Below, piece after piece: positions 9,447 through 36,937 of a DNA stretch of 64,000 bases (positions are counted from its first letter, which is position 1; every line of letters begins with the position of its first letter). Source of the stretch: Chrysomallon squamiferum (Eukaryota; Animalia; Mollusca); NCBI GenBank assembly GCA_012295275.1, contig CM022677.1, forward strand, positions 13,392,001-13,456,000. The letters run 5' to 3'. A program made the position numbers and the translations under genes. The notes beneath the pieces are model-generated. The model made no database searches, was not told the origin of the DNA, and was given only the letters and a program-made list of their open reading frames with translations.

Positions 9447-9477
<31 letters not shown>

Positions 9478-12137: not shown

Positions 12138-12171
<34 letters not shown>

Positions 12172-15100
12172 GTTATTGTTATTGTTACTATTATTATTAT
12201 TATTATTATTATTATTGTTATTATTATTATTCTAAATCTTTCTTTCAGGATTGATTTATGGTGTTCTAGAGATCAGTGATCAAAAAGTGCAGGAGGCCCT
12301 GTTGAGGTTAACGTAATATCAATTTATTCAACAAGGTAATATGAAGTTATATTGGTTTAATTATCAAAAAAAAAAAAAAAAAAAAAAAAAAATGAAATTA
12401 TAATAGTAATTTTAATCATTATTTTGATCTCAGAGTTTTTACATTATTAAACAATGTTATATGATTAATTAAACATGCTAAACATCGTAAGTTTAAATCT
12501 TTGTAATAGTTTAAATTAATGATTCTGTATTTTATAATATCAGTGTCCATAGATGGTCCTTATATTGTATCAAGAAAAAACATTGAGTTAAATTGTTTTA
12601 TTTAGAAATCTGGAAATGTACACATATCTCAAGGTTTCTGTATATTTTGATAAAAAATTAAATTAAATAAAATAGCCCATATTCATCTCCTATTGAGAAA
12701 AACAGACAACACAATTCATCTGTGTGTGGACTACAGGTGGCTGAATGCTAAAACTAGGAAAGACTGCTTTCCACTACCTACAATAGAAGAGTCATTAGAT
12801 GCTTTGCACAGAGCAAATTGGTTCACTACACGGATATGGCCAGTGAATACAACCAAGTTGCAGTTGAGGATAAAACAAAGACAAAACTGCATTCATCACT
12901 CCAATGGGTTTGTTTGAATCAATCGTATGCTGTTTGGTTTATCAGAAGCACCAGCCACATTTTAAAGACTCATGCAGCATTGCTTTACAGAGCAGATATT
13001 TCAGTGTTCTGTTTTTTTATGTGTGCATAGATAAACTAGAAGAGGTATTAAACATTTTAAAACAGCATGGGCTCAAACTAAAACCAAGCAAACGCTCTTT
13101 CCTTAAGAAAGAAGTGGAATATCTAGGACGTGATGTCTAGAGATGGGGTAGTTACAGATCCAGACAAAATAAAGGCTGTTCTTGAATGGGAAGTTCCAAA
13201 GACACCAAAGTTTGCCAGTTACTTCAGATCATACATTAAAGGATTCTCAGTTACTGCTCGACCTTTGCATTCTTTGGTGAACAGGTTCTGAGATAAGAAA
13301 AATCAAGAATTGTTAAAGGGTGCTTGGTACAAGAGTTGTCAAAAGAGATACTTTAAAAGAGAAGTTAACTTCAGCTCCAATATCAGGAAACGCTGATTTC
13401 AGTGAACTTTTCAAGTTTTCAGGAAGTGGGAGCAGTACTGTCACAGGAGCAAAATGGGCAAAGTGAAGAAATTACATATGTTAGACAGAGCTTGAGACCC
13501 ACTGAGAGAAACATGAATAATAACAGTTCCAGGAAATTAGAGCTTGTCTGAAATGAGCTGTGACTGAAAAGATTGAAAATTATCTTCTCAAACATCAATT
13601 TACCATATATACAGACAACAATCCAGTAAGTCGTCTTGATAACACAAAACTACATGCAGTGGAATAAACATGGGGGTCTCAGCTGGCACAATTTGATTTT
13701 GATGTGAAATATCATTCAACACAATAAGAATGCTGATGGCCTATCCAGGAAGAAATTTCACAGAATGACATCTACTTCAGTGGAAGCTGCTTTAGAGATA
13801 CTGCTAGATACAGAAGTTACACAACCAATGAGACACGTTATAAAAGGTGGTGGAAGAAAAGTCACACAGTAAACAATTTAATGGAACAATTTAATGAAAC
13901 TATGGAAGCCACAACATCATCTCCCAGCTTTAGAAGAACTAGCAGTGATGCAGGCAAAAGACATGTTAATAAGGAGATTGCTGTATTACATGGCTATCAT
14001 GCAGAGCTGAGAGAAGATTAGAAGAATCAGGTTTCTTCATGCTAATCTGGCAATGGGACAGATTATTCCTTGAAAACAAAGCACTTTACAGAAAAGTAAA
14101 GGACCCAACTTGGCAAGTTTGCTGTTCATCTTATCTAGAAGAAATATCATCACATTCCTTCCTCTCTACAAACATAAATACAATTATTATTAGTAAATAC
14201 TGTCTTAGAATGACTTAGAAAATATCCTTTTGACCTGAAAAACAGAAATATTTGCAGATTGTGTTGAATGGTTTAATTATCTAAATCTATTGTGTTTTCT
14301 AGATTCAAGTATTTTCTGTCTGAAATGTTTAATTATGTGTGCACACATGGACAGGAAGACACATTTCACTTTCTTTTATAATGGAGCCAGAAACAGTCTG
14401 ATGTAAGCACTAATGTGATTTGATTCTGTGCCTACCCACACTTCATACACTGACTTACACATTGACTACAGAAAACACAGCAGTCAGTTTAATTCATAGT
14501 TTACAGTTTTCTCTCTAACTTTATTACAGTGATTACCACTGTGAAATAAAATACTTGATAACCAATTTGACTAGAAAATAAAATAAGGAAAGAAAATAAT
14601 TAGGAAAAGCAGCTAAAATTTTTTAATAAATCACGTTTCTCCTCGATATAATAGCTATTGAAACAGACCTATTATTTTACTAATTATTTATTTATTGTTA
14701 TTTTTATTAGATGTAAATTAACAGAATTTAACTTTAAACACTGTAAATGTTTAAAAAAAAAAGATCAAAAATTAAAACCTGATATCACATAATCCTAATT
14801 TTCATTTAGAATTTAACAATTTATAAAACTGTTTATTTCTTTAAAACATTATTCCAAAATCTGTAGAAATTAATGGTGGTTTAAGACCCAGCGCAGACAC
14901 AATACAAGATAAATTATTAATGGAGCTCAGTGTGGAATGGGAAACGGTAATGTTTCAAGGATAAAGTGAGCTCTGGGATCATTTCAGATTCTTATTTATT
15001 AAAACTAGTTGTAATTAGAACATTTATCAATTTAAATACTGATAAATTAAAAATTTAACAAACTATTAATCATATAAATATTAATCATGTATATTATAAG

Positions 15101-16221
15101 TTTTAATAATTCATGTACTTCTGTGTTATATTTACAGATGACTGACTGAACTTCCACTGCAGTCCATGTTGTCCACGAAGTGATCATGTCAGAATTCTTG
15201 CAGTTGCTTCCATATTGTCTGGGCAGAATATTCTCTACAGACCAAAGGTTTGAAACTGCTGGTTTTTATTGGTTTCAAAGATATAATTAAGCTAATATAA
15301 TTAAGAAAATAAGTAAAACAGAAAAGTTATTATTAACAAAAATCTTATATACAACATCCTATGTTTTGGAAATTAAAAAATAAATAAATAAAAAAGATAA
15401 AAGCAAAGTGAACTCTTTATTATTAAAATCCAAGAAAAAAAGACATCCAAAATATTATTTTGTTTATTTATGGTGAACAATCTTGTTAATTATAAAGTTT
15501 GACACAAAACTGAAGAAACTTGCTGATTATGAACACTAAACATTGTAGTACAATTCAGTGAAGAACAATCGCTTCTCCAGTTTGTGGTGTTAAAAGAAAT
15601 TTGTACAAACTCAGAAACTCAGATGAGTTCAAGTGTTTGAAATCAGATGCTGAGTATAATGGAAAGGTAATTCAGTTTACAACTAGACTTTATAAACTGT
15701 AAAATATAAATCATTTAATGCCATATGAGAATATTTTAATATTATTATTATAATTTTCTTTTTTTAAATAATGGTATCTGTAGATGCAAAGAAAAAGACA
15801 AAACGTGACATTGATACAGCAGTTGGGAGAAAAGGACTGTAATTAGAAAATGTATGTTCAAAAATTAACAGATAAATATTACTGATCTTACTTGTTGTCA
15901 ATTTTTATAAAATATATTAATTTATGTACTTAATTAAAAGTAAAATGGAAGTTACTGTTTTAAGAACGAAAATATATATATATATATATATACAATGAAA
16001 AATAGAGGTCCAACAAGACTGTTTAAATAAATATAATTAAACTTTATTTTATTTCAGTTAAATTAACTGTACTTATTATTGGTTGAAAACATTACTTCAG
16101 ATTCAAATGATAAAATATAAAATTATAGTGGGTCTTGTTAAAATGTTTGAATGTAATATTTTTTATTTCAGTCATCACAGAAAGCTATTTACAAGAACTG
16201 ATGTCCACTGAATCTAAATGA
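11342..16221. repeat. Right arm of ~4.9 kb inverted repeat; spacer 10279-11341
   Basis: Reverse complement of 5395-10278, with only scattered substitutions and homopolymer indels. Confidence 0.95.
12690..14150 (+). mobile_element. Degenerate Ty3/Gypsy pol fragment
   Basis: Same Gypsy RT motifs as 7470-8930, followed by an RNase H-like FTIYTDNNP segment; many stops and frameshifts. Confidence 0.85.
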
Positions 16222-16759: not shown

Positions 16760-17452
16760 TGACCTATTTAAAAAACAGAGTTGAACAGACTGGCTTTTGG
16801 CTTTTGGACCAAATGTACTTTAACACCCGAAGGTGCATAGTCACGTGACATAACGTCATCTCAAAATATTAAAAAAAAGTATATAGGGTGGGGGGAGTGA
16901 AAGACAAGACGTGATATATAGTCAACCTAACTCTTGTGATTTGTAAAAAAAACAAAGATCTTCATTACTGGCTTTTGGCTTTTTGACCAAAAGTACTTTT
17001 AACGCGAAGGTGCTTAGGCTTCGCCCGAAGGAGCATAAGTTAAAGTACATTTGGTCAAAAAGCCAAAAGCCAATCATGGTGAACTTTGTTTTTTTAACTT
17101 ATGATCCTTCGGGTTTTGGCTTCGCCCGAAGGAACATTATCACCTTCGGGTTAAAAGTACATTTGGTTAAAAAGCCAAAGGCCAATCATGGGGAACTTTG
17201 TTTTTTTTTTTACAATAACAAGAGTTTAGTTGAAATTGTAAAAAAAACAAATTTCCTCACTACATGGCTTTTTAGCTTTTTGGCTTTTTGACCATAATGT
17301 ACTTTTAACCCGAAGGTGATAACGTTTCTTCGGGCGTAGCCGGAACCCGAAGGATCATAATTTAAAAGTACATTATGGTCAAAAAGCCAAAAAGCTAAAA
17401 AGCCAGATCATGAGGAACTTTGTTTTTTTTACAATAACAAGAGTTAGGTTGT
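16760..17452. repeat. Cluster of complete and partial viral terminal hairpins (ITRs)
   Basis: Half arm ~16790-16835; variant hairpin ~16850-17095; flop half ~17095-17235; full flip hairpin ~17237-17452 (GGCTTTTT repeats, TGTACTTTTAA...TTAAAAGTACA stem). Confidence 0.85.
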
Positions 17453-17526
17453 AGAATCTATTATAGCTGATGTCGCTAATTCAACAGACGTATCAAACGC
17501 AAATTCTATTACAGATTCTTGTGGTT

Positions 17527-19223
17527 TTTTCCAGTGCAATATTCATCTCATCATCTGTTGGATCGAATCCGATAGTAAACAACTTTGGATGCATGAGATT
17601 ATATGCATTTTTGAGTACGTCACTCTTCTTTAAATCTTGAATGAAATAAAGTCTTGTCTTCATAATACTGATTTGACTTGTAGTCAAACCATCTCCAAAT
17701 CGATTATTTGAATTTATCATACAAATATTTGCTCGGCAATAGCATGGAGTGGTTCCCTTACGTTCACATGTAGCCTTACTACCACTGAGCAAATCTTTAT
17801 ATTTATCGATATTTGTCTGATTTATTGAAATTTCTTCGCCTAACACGATCTTTTTGTTTCCAAGCATTTGCCAAGGGAAATTGTCTTTCGCGATTTTTCC
17901 TGCACATGATAAACATTCAAACATGCTACTCGATATCATGGTCTTTCCAGAATCTGACTCTCCTTGTAAATATATGCCTTTTCCCTTTTCCTTTCAATAA
18001 TGCAACAATCAAACAATACAGCCATCTCTCTGGCAGATGTTGTTCAAAGCACCAACTATTGAATACTTTTAAACTGTCCTCTGGTGTCATGTAATGTTCA
18101 GTAGTATCATTTAAGTTCATAATTTGTTCAAATGCATTTTTATCCGATTGTTCATCTAAGAATTTTGATCTAGCCGCTTTAAATAGTTTTTCACCAGATG
18201 TATTTGCAACTGAATTACATAATGCCTTAAATTCGTTCAAACTACTGTCAAATTTACTAATCAACATGTTCAGTTTGTTAACTTCTGGATGTTTTATGAT
18301 CAAATTGTAGAAGAAATCCAACGTATCAGCTGACTTGTTGGTTAATAGATGTGAAGGAATATTGTCGTTCTTTGTATTACTTGTAGCAGTTTTATCATCT
18401 TCCATCATTGCATCTATAATTGTATTCTCTATCTTAGCCTCAGATGAAGTTGTTCCTGCACCGTGATTGATGGACGTATTCATAGTTGTTGGTTCTGATT
18501 TGACTTTAATTTCATCTTTTCTAATAGTTCCTTGATGGCAGACATCATGGACGTATCATTAGAGATATCTTTATTGTCAAAAAAGTCCATCAAAATGTTC
18601 ATAATATCATTTTCATTATCATGATATCGTTTGTCTATTTCATTCCAGATATGAAGCATTCGTTCGTCATTTGTACCAAGGTACATCTTCTCATTATCAT
18701 TCATCAGATATGACATATAATTTTCCAGACATGTATTTTGAGGTTCCTTCAGTTTTCCTATTTTGATGTATCCCTTCTCATTGAGTACCGCACGGTGTAA
18801 TCTTCTGTATTGCCTGTCCTGTGAGGGTGTTTTCATGTTATTCTTCCAAATTACATGAACATGAGATCCATACGTTGGAAAGGCTTTATCCATTTCACAG
18901 TCTTTTTGATGATAAACTATCAGTGATTTCCAGTTTATATTTCTTAGAAAGGATTTTAGCTCAGTTATCACTCTGTCCTGTCCTTTGGCTAAATATTGAT
19001 GCTGGGTGTTGCCCAATGGTCAACCGGTTTGTCTAAGATATCCTGTGGATCCATTTGATAGCTTTTTATAAAGCTTTTTACCTTGAGCATAGACGTAATT
19101 ACCTTCTTTGTCCTTCACTAGGCTTCTCGGAACTAAATATTTGGGATGCACCATATCATATAATGGATGTCCAACAATTACGCTGTAATAACTGTCTTCT
19201 GGTAATTCAATGTACCTATCCAT
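17527..19223 (-). pseudogene. NS1: NS1/Rep, unit 1 (frameshifted, C-terminus truncated)
   Basis: GSHVHVIW HUH motif and the SF3 segment VLGEEI..KDLLSG..MINSN..KTRLY, split over ORFs 19020-19223, 18480-19016, 17926-18483 and 17493-17939. Confidence 0.9.
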
Positions 19224-19436
19224 TTTTTTATCAATATAGTTATAATATGTTGAAACAATTCTTTTGTAATGAATAACAAACGAATGAAAAATTAAACTGA
19301 AGCGTCTTTATTTATAACAAATGTAACATGACGTCATATATATGACGTAATAATGTGTACGTGACATTAATAACGTTAACATTTAAAAATACTTTTAACT
19401 GTATTAATATGCAACTATAAGAACTATTTACATCAG

Positions 19437-21538
19437 TTATACTGGATATGACCAATCGGTAGTACTACCAGTAATGGGTACAGATCTATCACCATATGTT
19501 CCATGAATAGGCCAAATGAATCTACGTCTATTTTTACGTTTAAACCAATTATCGCATATAGGTGCAGCAATTCGCATTTTCCATTGTTTTTCAATTCTCT
19601 CTTTATACTGTTTACCAGTTTCATCTAAAAACTGATCTTGTTCAGTATGTTTTACATTGTCTTTATTTCCTGTTGGTATAGTGTCATTAGCTTTGAAAAA
19701 TAAACCCTGCATTGGACCAGAACATCCACCTAAACCTATCGGTATATATTTAGGACACATACCAGTTCTTACAACAAATTCAACTTCGCTGTAATACGTT
19801 ATTTGAATATTAGCATGATAGTTAAAGAATAATGTTGATCCGCTAGTAGTTTTACATCTGGATATATTCCAATTAAAAATATGGGAGGTATATTACACTG
19901 AAAGGTCCTCCTATTTGATCCATCTATACATGTATTAACATTAGGATCATCAGCATCATTATAAGATACACCAGATTTAGCTATCTTGGTACCACCATCA
20001 TCTACCATACATGGAGCACCTAGATCTCTAGATGCTTTATGTTGGTAACATCCTTTATAATTAACAGACCTATATTGGTGATTGAAATAGGTAGTAACTG
20101 CTGTTGCCATAGGATGTGTTGAAAAATTAGTTACTGTAATTTCATGCGTTGGCCAAACTTCTAAATTATCTTTATTTTCATTGCTTTTTATATTTTGCAT
20201 TGATATTTATCTTTTCTAATATTTCCTGTCATTTGAGTAAAATTTAAAGTGTGACTACTTTCACCTGGAAATATAACTAATGGTGAATCTTTACATGTAT
20301 AATCTAATCCAAATCCACCTGCACTGATAACTGTTTCTCTATAACCATCATGTAATTAGGTGTTTCAGCAGTGTAATTAATATTATCACTGTTTTGGGTC
20401 CATGCATTACTTAATAATTGCATACCTATGTCACTAGGTAAATACATTTTACGATCTGGTTGAACTGGTATAGCTCTATGAGATGTATTATCCATACACT
20501 CTTCATCGCTAAATCGATTGTTATGACAAATTTAAATGTCTATCTGGTAAACCGTAATCATTGTAAATATCTGTAAACGTCCAAACACGTGCATTTGGTG
20601 GTGCCATTACAGGTACTTCGTTTGGATCTGATTTATTATTATTTAGTACATGTATTATCATATTATTTATATTAAATCCAAATTTTTTAATTTTATAACC
20701 AACAAATTCATCTGGTAAATTCCAATCATCAGGTTTCGTACTTGTTTGCTTGTACCAATAAGGTATGATATGTCCTCCATGATTAAATACAAATTCACAT
20801 ACATTAGGATCACCTATTGCTTTTTTTCCGGTTAGTATTATCTGTACCATTATCTAATATTTTCATTGTAGCTTTTCTAGTTTTAGTAAAATTTATCACA
20901 CTAGTAAATGTTCTTTTGAATGTCTTTTTAATAGTTATATATCTAGGATTAGCTCCTTTAGTGGTTCCTCCAAATCCTTGATACAAAAAGTTGTTACCTG
21001 TAGCTGAAGCCATCGGAGCACCTTCAACAGCTTCGCTTCCACCTGTATCGGTAACCTCTTCATTCATTATTGAATCAGGCTCCATTACAGATTCTTGTGG
21101 TTGAAGGTATGTTCCTTTAGAATTAGATTGTTCTAGTACATCTTGTGATATTCTATCAGATAATTGATTGTTGTTAGGCACTTTAGAACTTGATCCACCT
21201 GCTGGTTCATTTGTTTGTCTCTTCATAGTTTGTTTTGATTCTGATCTTGGTCTATCTTGTATTTGTTCGTCTTCTGGGTATAAAGGTGTATTGAAAGGAT
21301 CCTCTTCGTCTGAATTCTCAGGATTGTAATGGTTTTCCCGAAGATCTTGTATTGCCTTATAGAAACTTTGATTAGGAATTTGTAAATTAGGATACTGACG
21401 TCGTATTTGTAACCACCTATCTTGGCGCTGATCAACCGGCACATTTAAATCTGCTAAGATAGATAATGCCTTAGCTTTAGCTATTGCCCAGAGTCGTGTC
21501 ACTTCTTTCTTGTTTAGCAAACGTTTTCCTTTATTCAT
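19437..21538 (-). pseudogene. VP: Capsid protein VP, unit 1 (several frameshifts and small deletions)
   Basis: ORFs 20810-21538, 20521-20850, 20304-20495, 19799-20200 and 19437-19760 are collinear with the unit-2 VP. Confidence 0.88.
21223..21444 (-). CDS. Overlapping +1 ORF inside the VP N-terminal region, unit 1 (73 aa)
   Basis: MCRLISAKIGGYKYDV..YKFLIKVSIRQYKIFGKTITILRI; homologs are present in all four units. Confidence 0.6.
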   Translation of the reverse strand: MCRLISAKIGGYKYDVSILIYKFLIKVSIRQYKIFGKTITILRIQTKRILSIHLYTQKTNKYKIDQDQNQNKL

Positions 21539-21900
21539 GAAATCGGACTGTTTCTATATATGTAATTTACGTATTCGTCCTCTTCTTGTCCTAAATCTTC
21601 TCGTTCAGATTTAGAAACGTTGTTATCCAATTGTTTATCACCTGAATTCACTAAATCACCAAACTGATTTAATGCTTCTTGTATTTGATTTTTAGTATAT
21701 GTAGAAATACCTTAAATTGACGATTCTACAATAGATTGTCCAATAGCTGTTGCTGGTTCCAAATATATACTATCAGCTCCCAATATTTCAGTAATACCAG
21801 GTACTGTAGATTCTAGTACAGCAGATGTAGCTAATTCCACTGAAGCATCAAAAGCGTATTCGATAATTTCAGTAGCTATAATTCCTAATGCTGTGAATAT
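21535..21900 (-). pseudogene. ORF X, unit 1 (ATG>ATA, internal stop)
   Basis: Collinear with 27196-27561 (FTALGIIATEII...). Confidence 0.8.
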
Positions 21901-21992
21901 CCTATCAAAGCAATAGCTTGATTATAAATGAATTATATTTTAAAAATCAAGATTAAATATAAAATATCACGTGATATTACGGAAATTACGTA

Positions 21993-22433
21993 ATACTCTT
22001 CAAAATAAAAAAGGATGGGGGGGTGAATAATGTAATGACCTGATAGATTTCAACCTAACTCTTGTTATCTGATAAAAAAACAAAGTTCCTCACTACATGG
22101 CTTTTTAGCTTTTTGGCTTTTTGACCATAATGTACTTTTAACCCGAAGGTGATAACGTTCCTTCGGGCGTAGCCAGAACCCGAAGGATCATAAGTTAAAA
22201 GTACATTATGGTCAAAAAGCCAAAAAGCTAAAAAGCCAGATCATGAGGAACTTTGTTTTTTTTACAATAACAAGAGTTACGGGCTAAAAGTACATTATGG
22301 TCAAAAAGCCAAAAAGCTAAAAAGCCAGATCATGAGGAACTTTTTTTTTTTTACAATAACAAGAGTTAGGTTGAAATCTATCAGGTCATTTTATTCTTCA
22401 CCACCCACCCTATTTTTTAATTTTGAAGAGTAT
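21993..22433. repeat. Junction ITR between units 1 and 2 (flip), with a duplicated right arm at ~22281-22360
   Basis: Palindrome ATACTCTTCAAAAT...ATTTTGAAGAGTAT around the core CCCGAAGGTGATAACGTTCCTTCGGGCGTAGCCAGAACCCGAAGG. Confidence 0.92.
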
Positions 22434-22676
22434 GACGTCATATACTATATTGACGTCATATCATATATTAACGTCATTTCCTTTATATTTTAGCAGACGA
22501 TATTTTTATTAATAATATAGTTTATTACATTAATATAATATTTTTAATAAACAAATAACAAGAATAATTAATGTTTAATTATATTTTATTTACAAAAATT
22601 AACAATAATGTAATACTTATTTTATTATAACATTTTAATAATATTTTAAACAGTAAATAAATGTTTATTTAATTAA

Positions 22677-24840
22677 CTAATTTTCCGATTTATATTTTTT
22701 GAAAATGTCCATTTGAGTTTCCTGTATTGTTTCGGTAAACTGATCATAAAATGACGGAGTTTCAGGTATGTAGAACTTGTATTTCTTCTGTTCAGGTTCT
22801 TCAGGTTCGGATCCAACAGTTATGTATTGTCCGTCCATCTGTTCGTCCAACTTTCGTTTTGTTCCTTTTTGCTCTTGTTTTTCTACATTACTTTCCTGTT
22901 GGCTGGTTATGAACAAATCTTGAGACGGATTATATGTTTCTACTTCCTCTTTTTCTTCATCTTCACTTGATATTTCAATATACTCTATTTTATCTTCTAC
23001 TTGATTGCTTATCATTGGATTATTTGATGCAATGATCGATTGACTGTCATCGAAATTGTCTCTGAAGTAACTATTACGTCCTTCGAAAGTGTTGTCTTCA
23101 ACGTTATTGTTATGTTTCATAGAGAAATATTCCCTGTCATTTTCTAATGCAATTGTCATTTCGTCCTCTGTCGGTTCATATCCTATAGTGAATAATTTAG
23201 GATGAATCAAATTGTAAGCATGTTTAAGAACATCACTTTTTTCAAGTCCTGAAGAAAGTAAAGTCTAGTCTTCATAATGCTTATTTGGCTTGTTGTTAAT
23301 CCATCTCCAAAACGATTATTCGAATTAATCATGCAAAGATTAGCTCTGCAGTAACAAGGAGTAGTGCCTTTTCTTTCGCACGTAGCTTTACTGCCACTGA
23401 GAAAATCCATGTATTTGTCTATATTTGTCTGATTAATTGATATTTCTTCACCCAAAATGATTCTTTTGTTCCCTAACATCTGCCAAGGGAAATTGTCCTT
23501 AGCTATTTTCCCTGCACAACTTAAACACTCAAACATACTGCTTGAGATCATAGTCTTACCAGAGTCAGACTCCCCTTGCAGATATACACCCACTTTCTTT
23601 TTACCTTTACCTTTTAGTAAAGCTACTATCAAACAATATAACCATCTTTCGGGAATGTGTTGTTCTACACACCAGCTGTTAAATATTTTAAGACTGTCTT
23701 CGGGTGTCATATCATTGAATGTTCTATATCATTGTTCAAATCGGTTATTTGATCATACGCATTTTTATCGGATTGTTCTTCCAGAAATTTAGATCTGGCT
23801 GCTTTAAATAACTTCTCTCCTGAAGTATTAGCAACAGCATTGCATATCGCTTTGAATTCATTGGAGGTACTGTCATATTTGCTAATAAGCATGTTAAGCT
23901 TATTAACTTCCGGGTTTTTTACAATTAGCTTGTAAAAAAGTCAAACGTGTCAGCTGATTTATTGGTTATCAAGTGAGATGGAACGGTTTCATCCATATTA
24001 TTATTGTCTGTTGTTTTATTATCTTCCATCATTATTTCTAACACATGTTCTTCTATTTTTGCATCGGCTGAGGTTGTACCTGTTCCATGTTTAATTGTCT
24101 TGTTGCTAGTTGTTGGCTGTGGTGTAGCTTTAACATCATCTTTTCGAACAGGTTCCTTAATGGCAGGTACAACAGAATCGTTATTTGCAACATCTTGATT
24201 GTCAAAGAAGTCTAACAATATGTTCATTAGTTCATCCTCATTACTTCTGATACATTTATCTGTATCATTCCATAATTTCAGCATGTGGTCGTCGTTTGTA
24301 CCGAGATACATTTTTTCTTTGTCATTCATTAGGTAAGTCATGTAGTTCTCCAATGATATAGTTTGAGGTTCTTTGATCTTTCTGATTTTAATGTATCCTT
24401 TTTCATTCAATATAGCTCTGTGCAATCTCCTGTATATACGGTCCTGTGATGGCGTTTTCATATTATTTTTCCAAATAACATGTACATGTGATCCATATGT
24501 AGGATAATTTTTATCCAATGTACAGTCTTTTTGATGATAAACTACAAGATTTTTCCAATTTTTGTTCCTTAAGAAGGCTTTCAATTCAGTTATGACGCGA
24601 TCTTGACCTTTAGACAGGAACTCGTAACTTGGTGTCGCCCAGTGATCTACTGTCTTATCCAAAATATCTTCTTGTGGGTCCATTTGATAACTCTTGATGT
24701 AATTTTTTCCGTGTGCGTAAACATACTTTCCATCTTTATCTTTTACTAAACTTCTTGGAACGAGAAACTTTGGATGAACCATCTCGTAGTTTGTATGTCC
24801 AATAATAGTTATCTTCTGCGAGTTCCATATGTCGATCCAT
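22677..24840 (-). pseudogene. NS1: NS1/Rep, unit 2: full length (~720 codons) but frameshifted
   Basis: ATG at 24840 (MDRHMEL, cf. MDRYIEL and MDRYVET in other units); HUH TYGSHVHVIWK; Walker A GESDSGKT; Walker B ILGEEI; motif C MINSN; Arg finger KTRLY. Confidence 0.92.
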
Positions 24841-24914
24841 TGCTTGTTTTGTTTTAATATATATATTTTTTTAAATTCTGTTATAAGTGATAACAAACGA
24901 ATGAATATTTTAAA

Positions 24915-25040
24915 ATCAACGTCTTTATTTATAACATTTTGAACATGAGGTCATTCAGAAGACGTAACCAATCGTACGTGACAAAAATAACGTTAACATT
25001 TGGAAAGACTTTTAACTGTATTAATACGCCAACTAAGATA
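24915..25040 (-). promoter_or_regulatory. Putative internal NS1 promoter / VP polyadenylation region (homologs at ~19300-19420 and ~32260-32310)
   Basis: Minus-strand TTATAAATAAAGACG ~80 bp upstream of the NS1 ATG in units 1 and 2. ACGT motifs upstream. Block ACTTTTAACTGTATT conserved in three units. Confidence 0.5.
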
Positions 25041-25060
25041 TTAATAATATTGATAATTTT

Positions 25061-25091
<31 letters not shown>

Positions 25092-25097
<6 letters not shown>

Positions 25098-27199
25098 GGA
25101 TATGACCAATCTGTACTGTTTCCGGTAATCTGTACACTTCTATCACCATATGTACCATGCACAGGCCATACTAATCGACGTCTAGCTTTACGTTTATTCC
25201 AATTGTCCCATATAGTGGCATACACTCTCATTTTCCATTGTTTTTGAATTCTCTATTTATATTGTTTAGCACTTTCATCTAAAAACTGATCTTGTTCAGT
25301 ATGTTTTACATTGTCTTTATTTCCTGTTGGTACAGTGTCGTTAGCTTTAAATATAAGGCCTTGCATAGGACCAGAACATCCACCTAATCCTATAGGTATA
25401 TATTTCGGACACATACCGGTTCTGACTAGAAATTCAACCTCACTATAAAAAGTTATTTGTATATTAGCATGATAGTTAAAGAATAACGTGGCCCCGTTAG
25501 TCGTTTTTTCAACATCTGGATATAGACCAATTAAGAATATCGGAGGTCTATTACACTGGAACGTCCTTCGATGTGATCCATCCATACATGTATTAACGTT
25601 CGGATCATCTGCATCGTTGGACGCTACACCAGCTTTAGATATTTTGGTACCTCCGTCATCTACCATAGATGGAGCACCTAGATCTTTAGATGCTTTGTTC
25701 AGGTAACATCCTTTATAATTTACATTTCTATATTGGTGATTAAAATATGTAGTAATTGCAGTTGCCATAGGATGTGTTGATACATTAGTTACCGTAATTT
25801 CATGTGTACGCCACACTTCTAAATTGTCTTTATTTTCATTGCTGCATTGATATCTATCTTTTCTAATATTTCCTGTCATTTGAGTAAAATTTAAAGTCTG
25901 ACTGCTTTTTCCCGGAAATATAACCAATGGAGAATCTTTACAGGTATAATCTAATCCAAACCCACCTGCACTAATAACTGTTTCTCTATATCCATCGTGT
26001 TTTTTCATATCGTATATGTAATTAGGTGTTTCGGCAGTATAGAGCACACCCTCACCGTTCCAAGCACTGTTTAACAGTTGCATACCTATGTCACTTGGCA
26101 AATATAATTTACGATCTGGTTGAACCGGTGTGCTTCTTTGAGATGTCTTGTCCATAAATTCTTCGTCTTTGAATAGATTATTATGTGACAAGTTTAAATT
26201 TCTTTCTGGTAATCCATAATCATTATAAATATCTGTAAACGTCCAAACTCGTGCGTTTGGAGGTGCCATTACTGGTACTTCGTTTGGATCTGATTTAGTA
26301 TTATTTAAAACGTGTATTATCAAATTATTTATATTAAATCCAAACTTTTTGATCTTATACCCAACAAATTCATCTGGTAAATTCCAATCATCAGGTTTCG
26401 TACTGGCTTGTTTGTACCAATATGGTATAATGTGTCCTCCATGATTAAATACCAATTCACAAACATTAGGATCACCTATTGCTTTTTTCCAATTAGTGTT
26501 ATTTGTACCATTATCTAATATTTTCATTTTAGCTTTTCTAGTTTTAGTAAAATTTATAGCACTAGTAAATGTCCGTTTGAATGTCTTTTTAATAGTTATA
26601 TATCTAGGATTAGCTCCTTTAGTGGTTCCTCCGAATCCTTGATACAAAACGTTGTTACCTGTAGCTGAAGCCATGGGAGCACCTTCAACAGCTTCGCTTC
26701 CCCCTGTATCGGTAACTTCTTCATTCATAATAGAATCAGGTTCCATTACAGACTCTTGTGGTTGAAGGTATGTTCCTTTAGAATTAGTTTGTTCTAGTAC
26801 ATCTTGTGATATTCTATTAGATAATTGATTGTTGTTAGGCATTTTAGAACTGGAACCTCCTGCTGGTTCATTCGTTTGTCGCTTCATTGCTTGTTTTGTT
26901 TCGGTTGTTTTTGATCCTTGTCTTGACTCTTCTAATGGGTATAGAGGCATATTAAAAGGGTCCTCTTCGTCCGAATCCTCAATATGGTTATTGTTTTCCC
27001 GAAGACCTTGTATTGCCGTATAGAAATTTTGATTAGGAATTTGTAAATTTGGATATTGACGTCGTATTTGTAGCCACCTGTTTTGGCGCTGATCCACCGG
27101 CACATTTAATTCTGATAAGATAGCAAATGCTTTAGCTTTAGCTATTGCCCAAAGTCTAGTCACTTCTTTCTTGTTTAACACACGTTTTCCTTTATTCAT
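25092..27199 (-). pseudogene. VP: Capsid protein VP, unit 2: 648 aa open, then one in-frame TAG (25253-25255) before a ~50-aa tail
   Basis: Gly-rich GFGGTTKG then TFKRTF. IPYWYKQASTKPDDW..YKIKKFGFNINNL resembles the parvoviral TPW..SPxDW..FKxFNI core. PPIFLIG and QITFYSEVEF occur late. The tail ORF from 25231 is in frame. No PLA2 (YLGPG/HDxxY) motif. Confidence 0.88.
26932..27105 (-). CDS. Overlapping +1 ORF inside the VP N-terminal region, unit 2 (57 aa, below ORF-track cutoff)
   Basis: Manual translation: MCRWISAKTGGYKYDVNIQIYKFLIKISIRQYKVFGKTITILRIRTKRTLLICLYTH*. Confidence 0.6.
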   Translation of the reverse strand: MCRWISAKTGGYKYDVNIQIYKFLIKISIRQYKVFGKTITILRIRTKRTLLICLYTH

Positions 27200-27561
27200 G
27201 AAATCGGACTGGTTATACGCATATAATTCACGTATTCGTCCTCTTCTTGTTCTAATTCGTCTCTCTCAGATGGAGAAACGTTATTATCCAATTTTTTGTC
27301 GTCTGGTTGCAAGAAATCACCGAATTGATGTATGGCTTCTTCTATTTGACTTTTAGTATATGTAGCAATACCTTCAACAGAAGATTCAACAATACTTTGT
27401 CCAATAGCTGTAGCTGGCTCTAAATATATACTATCTGCTCCAACAATTTCAGCAATAGCTGGTACTGTAGAATCTATTATAGCTGATGTCGCTAATTCAA
27501 TAGATGTATCAAAAGCAAATTCTATTATTTCAGTAGCTATAATTGCCAAAGCTGTAAACAT
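27196..27561 (-). CDS. ORF X, unit 2: intact 121-aa acidic protein with hydrophobic N-terminus, function unknown
   Basis: Conserved in all four units; its stop codon overlaps the VP start as ATGA. Confidence 0.8.
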   Translation of the reverse strand: MFTALAIIATEIIEFAFDTSIELATSAIIDSTVPAIAEIVGADSIYLEPATAIGQSIVESSVEGIATYTKSQIEEAIHQFGDFLQPDDKKLDNNVSPSERDELEQEEDEYVNYMRITSPIS

Positions 27562-27564
27562 CCT

Positions 27565-27655
27565 AACACATCATCAACAAACATAAAAATGAAAAATATA
27601 TACATATAGTTATATTATATATTATAAATCACGTGATATTACGGATATGACGTCA
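27565..27655 (-). promoter_or_regulatory. Putative ITR-proximal promoter for ORF X/VP
   Basis: Minus strand: TGACGTCA (CRE/ATF), then ATCACGTGAT (E-box), then TTTATAATATATAA. The E-box also occurs at ~21966 and ~30596. Confidence 0.55.
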
Positions 27656-28003
27656 TACTCTTCAAAATAAAAAAAATAGGGTGGGGGGTGAATAATAAAA
27701 TTACCTGATAGATTTCAACCTAACTCTTGTTATTGTAAAAAAAACAAAGTTCCTCATGATCTGGCTTTTTAGTTTTGGGGCTTTTTGACCATAACGTACT
27801 TTTAACTTATGATCCTTCGGGTTCTGGCTTCGCCCGAAGGAACGTTATCACATTCGGGCTAAAAGTGCATTATGGTCAAAAAGCCAAAAAGCTAAAAAGC
27901 CAGATCATGAGGAACTTTTTTTTTTTACAATAACAAGAGTTATGTTAGAATCTATCAGGTCATGTTTTACTAACCCCCCATTATTTATTTTGAAGAGACG
28001 TCA
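27648..28003. repeat. Junction ITR between units 2 and 3 (flop)
   Basis: Long palindrome; core TTATGATCCTTCGGGTTCTGGCTTCGCCCGAAGGAACGTTATCAC is essentially the reverse complement of the flip core. Confidence 0.92.
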
Positions 28004-28213
28004 TTTCCTGTTTATAACGTTATTTCCTATATGACGTCATAGCTTTGACGTCATATCCGTTTACAGTTTAGCAGACGATAAGTAAAATTCTACATTAATT
28101 AATTAATAAATAACAAACAATATTTACTTCAAATTAAATTATTTATTTAATTAACGTTTTAAATAAAATATTTAACAATATTTGTATAATTATTATACAA
28201 TACGTTATATTGT

Positions 28214-29872
28214 TCAATCTTCCTTTTTATATTTATTGAAAATGTTCATTTGGGTTTTTGGAATAGTTTCTGAAAACATAGCTTCAAACGGCTGACTTTC
28301 TGGAATGTAAAATTTGAATTTTTTAACTGTTGGATCTGATGGTTCGTATCCGGTTGTTATATAGTATGGATCTAACTCGTCTGTTGTGTTGTCATCATCA
28401 ACGTCATCAGGTTGGTTAATTTCTTCCCTTTTTCTTTTAATTCCTTTGTTGTCAGAATTAAATGTTTCCTCATTCTGTGACTTTACAAATAAATCTTGTG
28501 ACGGATTATAATAATCCTGTTCTGATATTTCTATGTATTCTATTTTGTTATCTTCTGTATCTTTAGTTGTGCTCATCATTGGATCTAAATCTGTTGTCAA
28601 TAATGTTTGGCTGTCATCAAAATTGTCATGAAAATAACTGAGTTTTCCATCTAACGTGTTGTCATTGTTACTGTTATTGTTTTTGTTGACAAAATAGTCT
28701 CTGTCATTTTCTAACGCGATGTTTATTTCATCATCTGTAGGTTCTCTACCTACAGTGAAAAGTTTTGGATGTAAAAGGTTGTAGCAATTCTTTAAAATTT
28801 CACTTCTTTTCAGATTTTGAATTAAATACAGTCTGGTCTTCATTATACTTATTTGTGAATTTGTTAAACCGTCTCCAAATTTGTTGTTGGAATTTAATAT
28901 GTTAGCACGACATATGTTAGCACGACAGTAACAAGGCGTGGTACCCTTGCGTTCACAAGTTGCCTTGCTACCACTAAGAAGGTCTTTATATTTGTCTATG
29001 TTCGTTTGCGTTATAGATATTTCTTCCCCTAGTACAACTTTTTTACCTCCTAACATTTGCCATGGGAAGTTATCTTTAGCGATTTTCCCCGCGCATTGTA
29101 AACATTCGAACATTGAGCTTGTAACCATGGTTTTTCCACTGTCTGATTCTCCCTGGAAATACATTCCTACCTTTTTCTTTCCTTTACCTTTTAACAAAGC
29201 TACTATTAAACAAAACAACCATCTTTCTTCTATTTCCTGTTCACGACACCAGCTGTTGAAAATTTTAAGACTGTCATCCGGTGACATATAATGGTCTATA
29301 TTATCGTTAAGAATTTGTATCTGTTCGAAAGCATTTTTTTCAGATTGTTCCTCAAGATATTTTGAACGTGCCGCCTTAAATAATTTGTCACCGGAAGTGT
29401 TAGCAACTGAATTGCACAACGCTTTAAACTCATTGGATGACGGTTCGAATTTGCTTATAAGCATGTTTAATTTGTTTACTTCGGGATATTTTGTTATCAG
29501 TTGGTAAAAAAAAATCCAATGTTTCTGCCGATTTATTTGTCAAGAGATGACATGGAATATTTCTATTTTCGTTCACTGTTGTATTACTTTCAATTTTGTT
29601 GTCTGATGATGTCATCATCGCATCTATAATGTCATGTTTATTTTGACGTCACGAGCACTTGTTCCTCCTTTAGATACAACATCGGACTTAGTAATCTTTG
29701 AATTAACGACATTGTCTGTCTTCACTGCTTCATCTTTTCGTATTGGTTCTCTTATCCTAGATGTATTATAGTTCATATCCATTTTCTGATTGTTGTCTGT
29801 GTTGTCAAAAAAATCGTTAAGTATGTTCATGATGTCGGCATCGTTGTCTTGCATTTTTTTATCCACGTCATT
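28214..29872 (-). pseudogene. NS1: NS1, unit 3: helicase and C-terminus open (416 aa, 28214-29464); HUH domain deleted
   Basis: GESDSGKT, VLGEEI and NSN motifs; 15-nt duplication (RANICRANI); upstream frameshifts. Confidence 0.9.
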
Positions 29873-30161
29873 TGTGTCTGTTGTTTGTTGGTTGTCGTCG
29901 TCGTATAAAGGGGTCCCGAAAGGGTCGTCTTCGTCCGAATTTTCAACAGCGTTAGTCTTGCCCAATATTTTGAATTGCCTGATAGAAATCGTAATTAGGA
30001 ACTTGTAAAGTTCGATACTGACGTCTGATTCGTAACCACCTTTCTTGTCTTTCTGAATAGGGGACATCTAAATCAGCTAATTTTGCAAATGCTCTGGATT
30101 TTGCTATAGATCAGAGTCTTGTTACTTCCTTTTTGTTCAACAGTCTCTTTCCTTTATCCAT
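29873..30161 (-). pseudogene. VP: VP N-terminal remnant, unit 3, fused to NS1 by a large internal deletion
   Basis: MDKGKRLLNKKEVTRL*, and ..NSDEDDPFGTPLY running directly into NS1-like NDVDKKMQDNDADIMNILNDFFD. Confidence 0.8.
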
Positions 30162-30526
30162 GAAATCGGACTGTTTCTATAAACATATGAAACGTTTTCG
30201 TCCTCTTCTTCTTGTAACTGCTGACGTTCAGCTTCAGAAACGTAAGTGTCTATATCCTTTCCACTATCAGCCGTAATTAACTTACCAACCTGATTTAATG
30301 CTTCTTGTATCTGATTTTTGGTATAAGTTGAAGTACCTTCAACAGACGATTCTACAATAGATTGTCCGATAGCTGTAGCTGGTTCAAGTAGTGCACTATC
30401 AGTACCTATTATCTCTGCAATAGCTGGTGCTGTAGATTCTAATATTGCTGATGTAGCTAGTTCCACAGAATCATCAAATGCGTACTCAATTAATTCAGTA
30501 GCTATGATCCCTAAAGCTGTGAACAT
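30158..30526 (-). CDS. ORF X, unit 3 (stop TGA>TGG, reads through to 30137)
   Basis: MFTALGIIATELIEYAFDDSVELATSA... Confidence 0.75.
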
Positions 30527-30645
30527 CGTATGATGACAATCATCAGTGGAATAAAATAATTTATACAATGAAAGAATATATATATAATAAAATATATCAC
30601 GTGATATGTCACGTGACACATATATGTAAGTATTCAAACAATAAC

Positions 30646-30911
30646 ATGACCTGATGGATTCTAACCTAACTCTTGTTTACCGTTAAAAAAACAAAGTTCC
30701 TCATGATCTGGCTTTTTGGCTTTTTGGCTTTTTGACCATAATGTACTTTTAGCCCGAATGTGATAACGTTCCTTCGGGCGTAGCCAGAAACCGAAGGATC
30801 ATAAGTTAAACGTACATTATGGTCAAAAAGCCAAAAAGCCAAAAAGCCAGATCATGAGGAACTTTGTTTTTTAACAGTAAACAAGAGTTAGGTTGAAATC
30901 TATCAAGTCAT
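30646..30911. repeat. Junction ITR between units 3 and 4 (flip)
   Basis: Palindrome ATGACCTGATGGATT...AATCTATCAAGTCAT with (GGCTTTTT)3 / (AAAAAGCC)3. Confidence 0.92.
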
Positions 30912-30977
30912 TTTATTGTTCACCCTCCACCCTATTTTTTTTTTAATTTGAAGAGTATGACGTCATATACGATATTG

Positions 30978-32189
30978 ACCATCGTTCTGGAATGCATTGT
31001 TCTACACACCAGCTGTTGAACACCTTTAAACTGTCATCTGGTGTCATGTAATTATCGATGTTATCCGATAATGACAGAATCTGGTCGTATGCGTTCTTCT
31101 CTGCTTCCTCTTCCATGTATTTCGATCTAGCAGCCTTGAATAGCTTTTCTTCTGATGTATTAGCTACTGCATTACATATAGCTTTAAACTCGTTACTGTT
31201 GCTGTCATATTTGCTGATTAACAAATTCAGTTTGTTCACGTCTGAATGTTTAACTATTAGTTTATAAAAGAAGTCAGATGTATCAGCTGATTTGTTGGTT
31301 ATCAGATGAGATGGAACTAATTCATCCTGTTTGTTAGTAGTATTACATACAGCAATATTGTTTTCGCCTTGAGGTATAGTTTCTAACATCACTTCCTCCA
31401 TCTTAGCTGCTGCAGAAGATGTTCCTTTACCGTGATTCACGACAGGAGATGATGTTGTAGTCTTATTGAAATTGACGTCGTCCTTTCTCACAGCTCTTTG
31501 ATATCGGAAATAATTGTACTCTTATCTTTTATTGGTTGATCGTCAAAGAAATCTAACAGAACGTTCATTATGTCTTCTTCCTCCTCTTTAGAACGTTTTT
31601 CTGTTTCGTTCCAAATGTGTAGCATCTTTTCGTCGTTTGTTCCTAAATACATCTTCTCCGAATCGTTAATCAAATACATCATGTAGTTTTCTACAGATGT
31701 ACATTGTGGATCCTTCAATTTACGAATCTTGATGTATCCCTTTTCATTTAAAATTGCACGAATGAGTCGTCTGTATTGTCTATCTTGTGATGGGGTCTTC
31801 ATGTTAGTTTTCCAAATAATGTGAACGTGAGAACCATAAGTAGGATAATTACTTTCTACTTGACAATCTTTTTGATGATATACTAATAGTATCTTCCAGT
31901 TCTTGTTTCGTATAAAGGATTTCAATTCTGTCACGACTCTGTCCTGTCCTTTTGCCAGATATTCATAATTGGGCGTGGCCCAATGATCCACAGTCTCGTC
32001 TAATATGTCTTGCTGATCCATCTGGTAGCTTTTAATATAATTCTTGCCTGGTGCGTAAACGTATTTACCTTCTTTGTCTTTAGCTAGAGATCTGGGTACC
32101 AAAAATTTCGGGTGTACCATGTCGTAACCAGTGTGTCCTATAACCACACTATAATAACTATTTCCAACGGTTTCAACATATCTATCCAT
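30978..32189 (-). pseudogene. NS1: NS1, unit 4: HUH domain present, helicase deleted
   Basis: TYGSHVHIIWK; homology ends at IPERW and joins the ITR flank. Confidence 0.88.
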
Positions 32190-32340
32190 TATTAATCCTG
32201 ATGACAATCAAAATTAAATTTATATGTTTGTTTAAAACATTCAATTTCATGTGACTAAATGAACGTAAATATTAACAAAGACTTTTAACTGTATTCTTAC
32301 GCAACTATGAGAAACTATTTTTATTTATTTATTTCTGTTT

Positions 32341-34012
32341 TTATATTGGATAAGACCAATCTGTACTGTCTCCTGTAATAGGTACACTTCTATCTCCATA
32401 AGCACCGTGTACTGGCCAGATAAATCGTCGTCTGGCTTTACGTTTATTCCAATTGTCCCATATAGGGGCATATATTCTCATTTTCCATGTTTTTTCGATT
32501 CGATCTTTATATTGTTTTACAGTTTCATCTAAGAATTGATCTTGTTCTGTATGTTTCACATTGTCTTTATTTCCTACAGGTGTAGTATCGTTCAATTTAA
32601 AAATGAGTCCTGCCATATTACCTGACGGACATCCACCCAAACCTATAGGTATGTATTTTGGACACATTGCCGTTCTGACTAAAAACTCCACCTCGCTATA
32701 ATAAGTTATTTGTATGTTAGCATGGTAATTAAAGAATAATGTAGCTCCGTTGCTAGTTTTCTCTACATCAGGGTATAAACCTATTAGGAACATAGGAGGT
32801 CTATTGCATTGATACGTACGACGGTGTTTAACGTCCATGCACATTTGGATTATCTAAATCATTGCTAGATATACCGCTTTTACATAGTTTGGTGCTAGCA
32901 TCATCTGCCATCGATGGTGCTCCTAAATCTTTACCAGCTTTATTTTGATAACAAGCTGAATAGTGTACATTCCTGTACTGATGGTTAAAATAGGTGGTGA
33001 TAGCAGTCCATACATTCTTCATCTTTTAATCGATTATTATGAGATAGGTCCAAATGTTTATCAGGTAATCCATAATCATTATAAATATCTGTAAATGTCC
33101 AAACTCGTGCATTTGGAGGTGCCATTACTGGTACTTCGTTTGGATCTGATTTAGTATTATTTGAAACACGTATTATCATATTATTTATATTAAATCCGAA
33201 TTTTTTAATTTTATAGCCTACAACCTCATCAGGTAAATTCCAATCGTCTGCCTTCGTGCTAGCTGCTTTATACCAATAAGGTATAATGTGACCACCATGA
33301 TTGAATGTAAATTCACATACATTTAGATCACCTATTGCATTTTTCCATGCTGAAGCATCTGTTGCATTATCTATAACTGACATACTAGCTTTTCTTTGTT
33401 TAGATAAATTAATCTCACTAGTGAATGTTCGTTTAAATGATTAGCTCCAGACGTTGTACCTCCAAATCTTTGGTATAAAACGTTATTTCCTGTAGCAGAG
33501 GCCATAGGAGCACCTTCACTTCCACCTGTATCAGTTACCTCTTCGTTCATGATAGAATCAGGTTCCATTACGGACTCTTGAGGTTGAACATACGTTCCTT
33601 TGGAATTATATTGATCCAATACATCTTGTGATATCCTCGTAGATAGTTGATTATTATTAGGAACTTTGGAGCTAGATCCTCCTCCAGGTTCGATGTTTTG
33701 TCGTTTCATGCCTTGTTGTTCTGATGCTTTTAATGCTTGTTCGTCTTCTGGGTATATAGGCGTATTAAAAGGGTCCTCTTCGTCTTGATCTTCAATATGG
33801 TTATATTCGTTCCGAATATTTTGTATTGCCGAATAGAAATCTTGATTTGGAATCTGTAAATTTGGATATTGACGTCGAATTTGTAACCGCCTGTTTTGGC
33901 GCTGATCCACCGGCACATTTATCTCTGATAATGTATCAAATGCTTTAGCTTTAGCTATAGCCCAAAGTCTGGTAACGTCCTTCTTGTTTAATATACGTTT
34001 CCCTTTATTCAT
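32341..34012 (-). pseudogene. VP: Capsid VP, unit 4 (internal deletions near 33000 and 33435)
   Basis: ORFs 33371-34012, 32985-33383, 32828-33022 and 32341-32844 are collinear with the unit-2 VP. Confidence 0.88.
33730..33918 (-). CDS. Overlapping +1 ORF inside VP, unit 4 (62 aa)
   Basis: MCRWISAKTGGYKFDVNIQIYRFQIKISIRQYKIFGTNITILKI. Confidence 0.6.
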   Translation of the reverse strand: MCRWISAKTGGYKFDVNIQIYRFQIKISIRQYKIFGTNITILKIKTKRTLLIRLYTQKTNKH

Positions 34013-34376
34013 GAAATTGGACTAGTAGTACGCATATATGATACGTATTCGTCCTCTTCAGTTTCCAATTCCTCTCGTTCTTCAGATTAAACGTTATTAT
34101 CTACTGCTGTATCTTTTTTGAATTCACAAAATCAGTGAATTGATCCAAAGCGTCCTTTATTTGAGTTTTAGTATAGCTAGCAGTGCTTTCTACAGAAGAT
34201 TCAACTATACTTTGTCCAATAGCAGTCGCTTGAAGTAGATATACACTGTCAGCTCCGACAATTTCGGCTATAGCTGGAGCGGTAGAATCTATAATAGCTG
34301 ATGTAGCAAGTTCCACTGATGTATCAAACGCAAATTCAATGATTTCAGTAGCAATTATACCCAAAGCTGTGAACAT
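34009..34376 (-). pseudogene. ORF X, unit 4 (3' part disrupted)
   Basis: MFTALGIIATEIIEFAFDTSVELATSA...; premature stop at 34101. Confidence 0.8.
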
Positions 34377-34414
34377 CCTAATTCAACAACTGATAATAAT
34401 CAAATGAACATTAT

Positions 34415-34720
34415 GCTGAATGACTCTTTGGCGTAATGGTCGGCAAGTTTGTTGCTGATGATGCTGACATGTGCTGGGAGCCACTTGATGATTAGTTGTG
34501 TGTTGTTGTGTTGTATGTCCTCGTGTAGCTGTTGTATTCTGCTGAGTAGGTCTGGTCTGCTGGAATTCGGCCGTGCATGCTGAAAGGTGATTTCTGATAC
34601 GGCTGAATTGTATGCATGTGGGTTTGTTTGTGTGATCTTGGACTATGAAGGCGAATCCTACTCTCCTGTTGTCTGGGTTTTTGGATGTACGTGTGTTGTT
34701 TATAGTGGTTGTTTGCTGCT
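34415..34720 (-). mobile_element. LINE RNase H fragment abutting the viral array
   Basis: Encodes WLPAHVSIISNKLADHYAKES. DNA is similar to ~45820-45880 of the larger LINE (HVGIIGNKLANHYTKES). Confidence 0.7.
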
Positions 34721-36902: not shown

Positions 36903-36937
36903 TTTTGAAAGGAATGGAGACAGAAACAGAAGAATGT

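Follow-up and report, generated by a model that had tools for sequence, protein, structure and literature searches.

A parvovirus-like array occupies positions 16765-34390 of a 64,000-nucleotide stretch of the genome of the mollusc Chrysomallon squamiferum (assembly GCA_012295275.1, contig CM022677.1, forward-strand positions 13,392,001 to 13,456,000), here called the window. The array consists of four related units, every one on the minus strand: A (17529-21897), B (22677-27561), C (28214-30526) and D (30979-34376). Hairpins resembling parvoviral inverted terminal repeats (ITRs) stand at the three inter-unit junctions (H1, H2 and H3), and a hairpin cluster, H0, lies to the left of A; the left end of the array carries surplus hairpins and the right end has none. 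The array is free of gaps, the sole assembly gap of the window being at 5195-5394. A preliminary description of this DNA had reported four same-strand units with a hairpin at every junction, which the sequence bears out (3/3 junctions). Its picture of four whole genomes was too generous, as only B is near complete, with a period of 5.66 kb. A is missing the end of NS1, C has lost about 2.7 kb so that the capsid start is joined to the middle of NS1, and D is without its 5' hairpin, NS1's helicase half and 389 nt of capsid sequence.

The order within a unit is hairpin, small open reading frame (ORF), capsid, spacer, NS1, hairpin. In A, B and D the capsid gene comes ahead of NS1 on the same strand, and the fusion in C is consistent with this order; the preliminary description recognized the array and overlooked this gene order. 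Standard Parvoviridae carry the nonstructural gene on the left and the capsid gene on the right, as set out in the available part of PMC12297876, and the array units depart from that arrangement. Capsid-first order is not new, because two unclassified goose-swab parvoviruses have already been reported with it in the accessible text of PMC9001828. Other hallmarks of the family are present: terminal hairpins in flip and flop forms, a genome length within the range of about 4-6 kb (judged from the period of B), and a superfamily 3 (SF3) helicase and an HUH endonuclease in NS1. The units are a capsid-first parvovirus lineage, unclassified and known here in integrated form only.

Genes of the capsid-first units

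On the minus strand, the large gene encodes an NS1 of parvoviral type with HUH endonuclease and SF3 helicase domains. It spans 17529-19223 in A (3' end missing, one stop and two frameshifts), 22677-24850 in B (full span, four frameshifts) and 28214-29872 in C (from about residue 200 to the end, with the helicase in an open 441-codon frame). D retains the nuclease domain and linker only, at 30979-32189, ending at the hairpin. The C protein matches Pfam Parvo_NS1 at 30.7 bits (cut-off 20), a match found in 30/30 aligned family members, and the family profile matches Rep40 of adeno-associated virus (AAV) with E 1e-13. Walker A and B motifs are present in A, B and C, and the HxHxxW and Y-motifs in A, B and D, with H121 and H123 invariant across 32 sequences. 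A model of the D nuclease (pLDDT, a model confidence score, of 87.9) has the AAV2 origin-binding domain as its first PDB match, weak by E-value (1.8e-3) and with a probability of 0.98. Among viral proteins the best match of this fold is A0A7D3UI69, an NS1 of 1093 aa from 'Parvoviridae sp.' (E 3.8e-20, TM 0.76).

The second large gene probably encodes the capsid, as suggested by the ESM Atlas, where the top matches of the candidate (0.94-0.95) are parvoviral capsid clusters. The protein has no Pfam match and no PDB sequence match, and its low-confidence model (pLDDT 28) returned nothing in a fold search. The gene lies on the minus strand at 19437-21538 in A (five frameshifts), 25094-27199 in B (648 open codons followed by one stop, with a poly-T run at the 3' end) and 32341-34012 in D (two frameshifts and the 389-nt deletion). 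In C a stub of about 100 codons (29875-30161) is fused to NS1 by the deletion of about 2.7 kb, and the joint lies in a single open 147-codon frame of capsid and NS1 sequence (29624-30067, minus strand). The phospholipase A2 (PLA2) motif HDxxY, which occurs in VP1 of most, not all, Parvoviridae, is absent from all three minus-strand frames. Right after the B capsid gene is a 31-nt plus-strand poly-T (25063-25093; poly-A on the coding strand) that does not occur in A or D.

The small ORF is found at 21538-21897 in A (about 120 aa, one stop), 27196-27561 in B (open, 121 aa), 30161-30526 in C and 34012-34376 in D (frameshifted, with no promoter or hairpin upstream), always on the minus strand. It is under purifying selection, with ratios of nonsynonymous to synonymous substitution (dN/dS) of 0.15-0.30 in six pairs of units. 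A search for homologues of 66-210 residues found none, and ESM Atlas matches are at chance level only. At 27196-27199 and equivalent positions, the small-ORF stop overlaps the capsid start codon in an ATGA, which suggests coupled translation or a spliced capsid leader. An alternative-frame, ATG-led ORF of 57-73 codons in the capsid 5' region (21444-21226, 27105-26935 and 33918-33733, minus strand) is a candidate overlapping accessory gene, being open in three units (A, B and D) and partly so in C.

The capsid-NS1 spacer of A (19224-19436, minus strand) contains a poly(A)-like signal, a TGACGTCA palindrome and a TATA-like box, and no hairpin (folding z -1.2, -0.3). The possibility that a genome terminus is hidden between capsid and NS1 is ruled out because the spacer lacks a hairpin in 3/3 units (A, B and D; z -0.3, 0.0 and +0.7). 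One contig of an independent sequencing run, X5, crosses the spacer among the matches listed. TGACGTCA has eight copies in the array, six of them beside or in hairpin flanks or in the spacer, and none in the remaining 46 kb, a distribution that would fit predicted promoters adjoining the hairpin and within the spacer. An Rfam search gave 0 matches.

Divergence of the units and structure of the junctions

Several lines of evidence bear on how the units came to differ. Capsid dN/dS is 0.13-0.25 (six pairs; upper bounds <= 0.54), and NS1 synonymous sites are saturated (pS 0.77-1.03 vs pN 0.14-0.22). Each unit has its stops and frame breaks at guide positions of its own, and none is shared. Given these low ratios, the saturated synonymous sites and the lack of any common lesion, sequence comparison indicates that the units were distinct working viruses, not post-insertion duplicates. 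Ordinary tandem duplication of one insert followed by neutral decay accounts for head-to-tail order and similar lesion density but is barely credible, contradicted as it is by dN/dS of 0.13-0.30 over both genes, by NS1 saturation and unshared lesions, and by hairpins far less diverged than the coding DNA. The preliminary description had named dN/dS near 1 with shared disabling mutations as the mark of such duplication, and neither was found; its central view, of units that became different while still functional viruses and were linked through ITRs, agrees with dN/dS far below 1 and with the hybrid-looking junction flanks described below.

NS1 protein identity between units is 65-81% (99-464 aligned codons of partial proteins). 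The species line for parvoviruses is NS1 identity above 85%, according to the available text of PMC9001828, and by this line the units do not form a single species. The lineages of A and B likely recombined earlier, as their capsid genes are nearer to each other than their NS1 genes are and have a 95% patch in common (7/2000 permutations).

The hairpins diverge far less than the genes, as the preliminary description had noted: the four full copies (H0c, H1, H2 and H3) are 92-98% identical, against 70-88% for coding sequence and 73-80% for the capsid-NS1 spacer. Folding compared with shuffled sequences gives z -28.7 for H1, -21.0 for H2, -20.5 for H3, -9.4 for H0a and -14.3 for H0c. H2 is in an orientation (flop) opposite to that of H0c, H1 and H3, so that the array holds both flip and flop forms, the inversion pattern of parvovirus ends.

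The three junctions are not alike. H2 (27626-28030) has a B-type left flank and a C-type right flank, and H3 (30590-30975) has a C-type left inner flank and a B/D-type right flank. H1 (21957-22469) is a full hairpin with an additional 89-bp arm, which starts with H2 flop-type sequence, a variant that differs from H1's own stem. The earlier claim of one shared ITR per junction thus stands for H2 and H3 and fails for H1. Flanks were compared over the 29 columns just outside the stem, which hold few informative sites. The two ends of C differ from each other at 2/28 sites and from those of A, B and D at 4-6; the two ends of B differ at 1/29, and the facing arms of H2, like those of H3, differ at 5. 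Because the ends of one unit (B or C) match each other better than facing arms do, H2 and H3 look like hybrids of two viral genome ends. Head-to-tail order, one hairpin and flanks from two genomes, the signature of AAV-type heteroconcatemers, are combined at H2 and H3; H1 has its surplus arm.

The left end is more complex. At the edge of the array is a hairpin-arm fragment of a shorter-armed ITR type (16765-16835), followed by H0a (16840-17098), a shorter-armed hairpin with its promoter-side flank and no coding region of its type left, and by H0b (17092-17232), a partial hairpin of the shorter-armed type in flop orientation. H0c (17235-17451) is 98% identical to H1 and has the same orientation and stem mismatch. 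Beside it is a 62-bp minus-strand remnant of a B-like small ORF (17450-17511; 95% to 27466-27527), likely the relic of an internally deleted mini-genome. In total, the left end is made up of three hairpin copies and an arm fragment, the shorter-armed type accounting for three of the four, together with the small-ORF remnant. Because H0 adds shorter-armed hairpins without coding DNA, at least five viral sources may have contributed to the array. Both H0 and H1 are irregular joints, unlike clean crossovers.

Sequencing runs and relatives

The array sequence, present in DNA from several individuals, is likely in the germ line, because it is contained in five DNA-type runs from three studies of one organism, in which 63-79% of the words of 22400-31000 are present; one of the five may be the source of the assembly, and contigs were compared for four. 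In two RNA runs, 14% and 7% of these words are present, which gives no evidence of expression. Contigs differ from B and C by 0-4 substitutions per 0.8-2.4 kb. Among the matches listed, the C deletion joint is bridged by contigs in 3/4 runs. A longer version of the hairpin-to-small-ORF joint at the left end is also found in 3/4 runs, with a short side of 29-30 letters.

None of the 29 short-read contig records listed, which belong to a longer list with 5553 more, spans a whole hairpin, and the unit order therefore rests on the assembly. Separate insertions could have been joined in error through their similar hairpins, an artefact that would also yield hybrid flanks, and the 4.9-kb inverted duplicate beside the scaffold gap marks the region as difficult. 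However, mis-assembly is very improbable: the hairpins are only about 400 bp long and 92-98% alike, whereas the gap-free contig resolves the 4.9-kb repeat (99.3%) and tandem arrays of 480-580 bp, implying long reads, and internal joints and arm-to-unit links recur in independent runs.

Contig depth differs among parts of the array. C contigs have depths of 12-14, 51, 88 and 65 in the four runs, and A-like contigs (2-6% diverged) have depths of 56-60, 222-279, 1176 and 202; for D-like contigs, found in three runs, the values are 41-70, 1537-1757 and 249-603. The left host junction (16773, at least 46 letters per side) is represented by one contig per run, at depths of 62, 488, 1397 and 729. These values hint at several copies of the locus that vary among individuals, most of them without C, although contig depth is not copy number. 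Certain related copies seem less broken than the window's own units. A D-like contig of run X5 (34009-34419, depth 603) extends fewer than 31 letters beyond the unit, into the retrotransposon fragment at the right edge, a weak hint that surplus D-like copies share the right host junction.

Relatives of the genes are numerous. Helicase searches give 108 relatives at E <= 0.001 and 32 at 1e-30. In a tree of 48 of these 108 with one unjoined helicase piece each of A, B and C, and with no D and no classified reference, A, B and C group together (99/93) adjoining one relative, P0014. Genera and subfamilies are recognized by NS1 35-40% identical to that of classified members together with monophyly, and from a tree without classified references no named taxon is assigned. 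Many NS1 relatives are on stand-alone contigs of 3-7 kb. A large NS1 clade (P0017-P0037 and P0044) includes many proteins of 930-1120 residues with long C-terminal extensions, and the contigs of the members checked reach 7.2 kb at most. Thirteen members make up a related capsid cluster (54-56% identity over the full length), and their longest contigs measure 8, 61, 297 and 452 kb; five of the 13 are at 297 kb, and NS1 relatives occur at three of the four contig sizes. Two further related pieces lie on one 560-kb contig. Another host, too, probably carries several copies of this lineage. Scans of IMG/VR (helicase, two alignments and the hairpin motif) found no relative, nor did scans of JGI metagenomes.

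These observations also bear on the possibility that the units diverged inside the host lineage as a vertically inherited, transposon-like family that copies itself by hairpin replication and exchanges ITRs. Such a family could account for hairpins that are 92-98% alike beside another non-coding segment, the spacer, at 73-80%, for A-, B- and D-like relatives (0.3-6% diverged) at higher, individually variable depth, and for the 13-member capsid cluster on contigs up to 452 kb, with NS1 relatives at matching contig sizes. It is nonetheless quite improbable. Strong purifying selection on the capsid is expected of particle spread, many NS1 relatives stand alone on short contigs, and the high-depth left-edge contig has the same host junction, which indicates duplication of the locus rather than new insertions.

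Origin of the array, known systems and flanking DNA

The explanation we tentatively prefer, at somewhat under an even chance, is that four distinct capsid-first genomes, broken today, were fused head to tail by recombination of their ITRs when they infected the same germ-line cell, and were integrated within one episode or a brief burst. Before that, each unit would have been linear, about 5.7 kb long and terminated on either side by the same hairpin, and NS1 would have driven its replication in the rolling-hairpin mode; transcription of the small ORF and capsid would start from a hairpin-side promoter and that of NS1 from an internal one. Some genomes, C and the mini-unit at 17450 among them, would probably have been deleted beforehand, like defective particles. 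Open duplex ends of different genomes could then recombine in their common stem in an AAV-like manner, and the product would be a single hairpin with the flank of a different genome on each side. AAV genomes form head-to-tail heterodimers via ITR recombination, as described in the available part of PMC1131931, whereas rolling-hairpin intermediates are head-to-head or tail-to-tail in that of PMC3087758. Joining of linear genomes would explain the hybrid flanks, the mixture of flip and flop, and the irregular H0 and H1. Integration would have been followed by decay of the units. Duplication of the locus in the host genome likely came next, and units could have been lost by way of the direct-repeat hairpins, leaving surplus A- and D-like copies without C.

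A single episode is favored because lesion density, at 2.2 per kb in A, 1.1 in B, 1.7 in C and 1.5 in D, shows no significant difference (p=0.65; 23 events, low power), and no unit is fresh. Several points weigh against joining by co-infection. B has the fewest of the 23 manually tallied lesions on which the lesion test depends. Only for C is the flank test clear, because the 3' flank of D is B-like too: it differs from the ends of B at 1-2/29 sites and is as near to them as they are to each other. Hybrid flanks are equally expected from serial insertion of circles and from mis-joining, and the order of units depends on the assembly as noted. That at least four species-level viruses met in a single germ cell is a demanding requirement. 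Every joint is head-to-tail, and random end joining should have added head-to-head and tail-to-tail joints. Finally, surplus copies are deduced from contig depth, which gives no copy number.

The other of the two routes in the preliminary description is serial capture, in which circularized one-hairpin genomes were added singly at a resident hairpin, by recombination or NS1 nicking, so that the array lengthened by stages. This route predicts strictly head-to-tail units with hybrid flanks, and A sits between two 98% identical direct-repeat hairpins. Head-to-tail bocavirus sequences arise in vivo, according to the accessible text of PMC3087758. Serial addition also draws on the low lesion count of B and on A- and D-like contigs and a left host junction at several times the depth of C, which leave it in contention by hinting at copies lacking C. 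Units B and C dropping out between direct-repeat hairpins would account for these depths equally well. With no age gradient among the units, no intact unit, and joints at H0 and H1 that are irregular rather than clean crossovers, serial capture seems somewhat unlikely; of the two routes, the co-infection concatemer fits slightly better, and serial capture is weakened by lesion densities without a significant difference and by the lack of a fresh unit.

A further, unlikely idea is that the locus is a germ-line landing pad, in which a resident hairpin repeatedly gains and releases capsid-first genomes, with unit content varying by individual, also in other hosts. If so, it would be a heritable, hairpin-punctuated record of infection, possibly for small-RNA defense. 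The infection archive suggested in the preliminary description gains no support from the data analyzed, which did not include small RNAs. Variation in units and copies among individuals would make gain and loss of units testable.

Joining in a co-infected cell, if this reading is true, would make the array a natural germ-line counterpart of AAV concatemer formation, with several related parvoviruses in one cell lineage exchanging ends and capsid segments. For the capsid-first lineage, previously known from environmental sequence only, the array supplies complete termini and a host, in the germ line of an animal, and it shows capsid-first to be the real order between hairpins. In the available part of their report (PMC9001828), the goose-swab parvoviruses MT138329 and MT138334 resemble the units in having a structural ORF upstream of the nonstructural ORF and one additional ORF, with strand orientation there unconfirmed. 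They measure 7.2-7.5 kb and are of unknown host, unlike the endogenous, hairpin-bearing units of about 5.7 kb.

Fossil parvoviral sequences are common; clusters of them, head-to-tail arrays of fragments and genome-length endogenous viral elements (EVEs) are already known, and each resembles the array in part; the comparisons here draw on the portions of the cited reports that were available. AAV heteroconcatemers (PMC1131931) likewise join different genomes head to tail at the ITR by intermolecular recombination, but they involve vector genomes in somatic cells, whereas the array combines wild viruses that differ at species level, in the germ line and with another gene order. EVE clusters of the parvovirus IHHNV in Penaeus monodon (PMC9357335) are also germ-line parvoviral clusters bracketed by host repeats. 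They are scrambled, run in both directions and are each 99% like one virus type, whereas the coding pieces of the array lie on one strand in genome order, are of genome scale and are joined by hairpins. The 33.5-kb EVE array of Bemisia tabaci (PMC12297876) is likewise head-to-tail parvoviral DNA in an invertebrate genome, but is built of 29 copies of one 1.1-kb NS1 piece, and the text available mentions neither hairpin junctions nor whole genomes. Megaparvovirus-like EVEs of beetles (PMC13426907) resemble the units in being genome-length and in revealing a host of an unclassified lineage with an unusual layout. They have NS1 before capsid and a PLA2 ORF, in contrast to the capsid-first units, and the available text describes no arrays. 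A full-text literature search, with subscription papers mostly outside its reach, found no germ-line chain of different parvovirus species joined by hairpins, and the word 'tandem' is absent from the main text of PMC9707805, PMC6232428, 10.1101/571109, PMC12287923 and PMC5013282.

The flanks of the array are AT-rich and microsatellite-rich and contain retrotransposon remnants, a make-up that would suit an invertebrate host. Abutting unit D at the right edge is a minus-strand fragment of a host retrotransposon (34400-34720; RNase H-like), with a Pfam RNase_H match below the cut-off (E=0.0011), very high depth, and 88% identity over 60 nt to a reverse-transcriptase ORF region at 45818-45877. Reverse-transcriptase remnants at 45583-46476 and 8480-8863 (minus strand) match Pfam RVT_1 with E 4.8e-14 and 9.4e-07. 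A 4.9-kb inverted duplication (5395-10277 vs 11342-16221; 99.3% identical, with 9 substitutions and 14 small indels) begins at the scaffold gap, and about 540 bp separate its end from the left edge of the array; it could represent a genuine fold-back tied to the insertion or reflect the assembly. Minisatellites are found at 36924-37401 (54 bp, 8.9 copies), 47710-48290 (38 bp, 15.2 copies) and 51055-51299 (30 bp, 8.2 copies).

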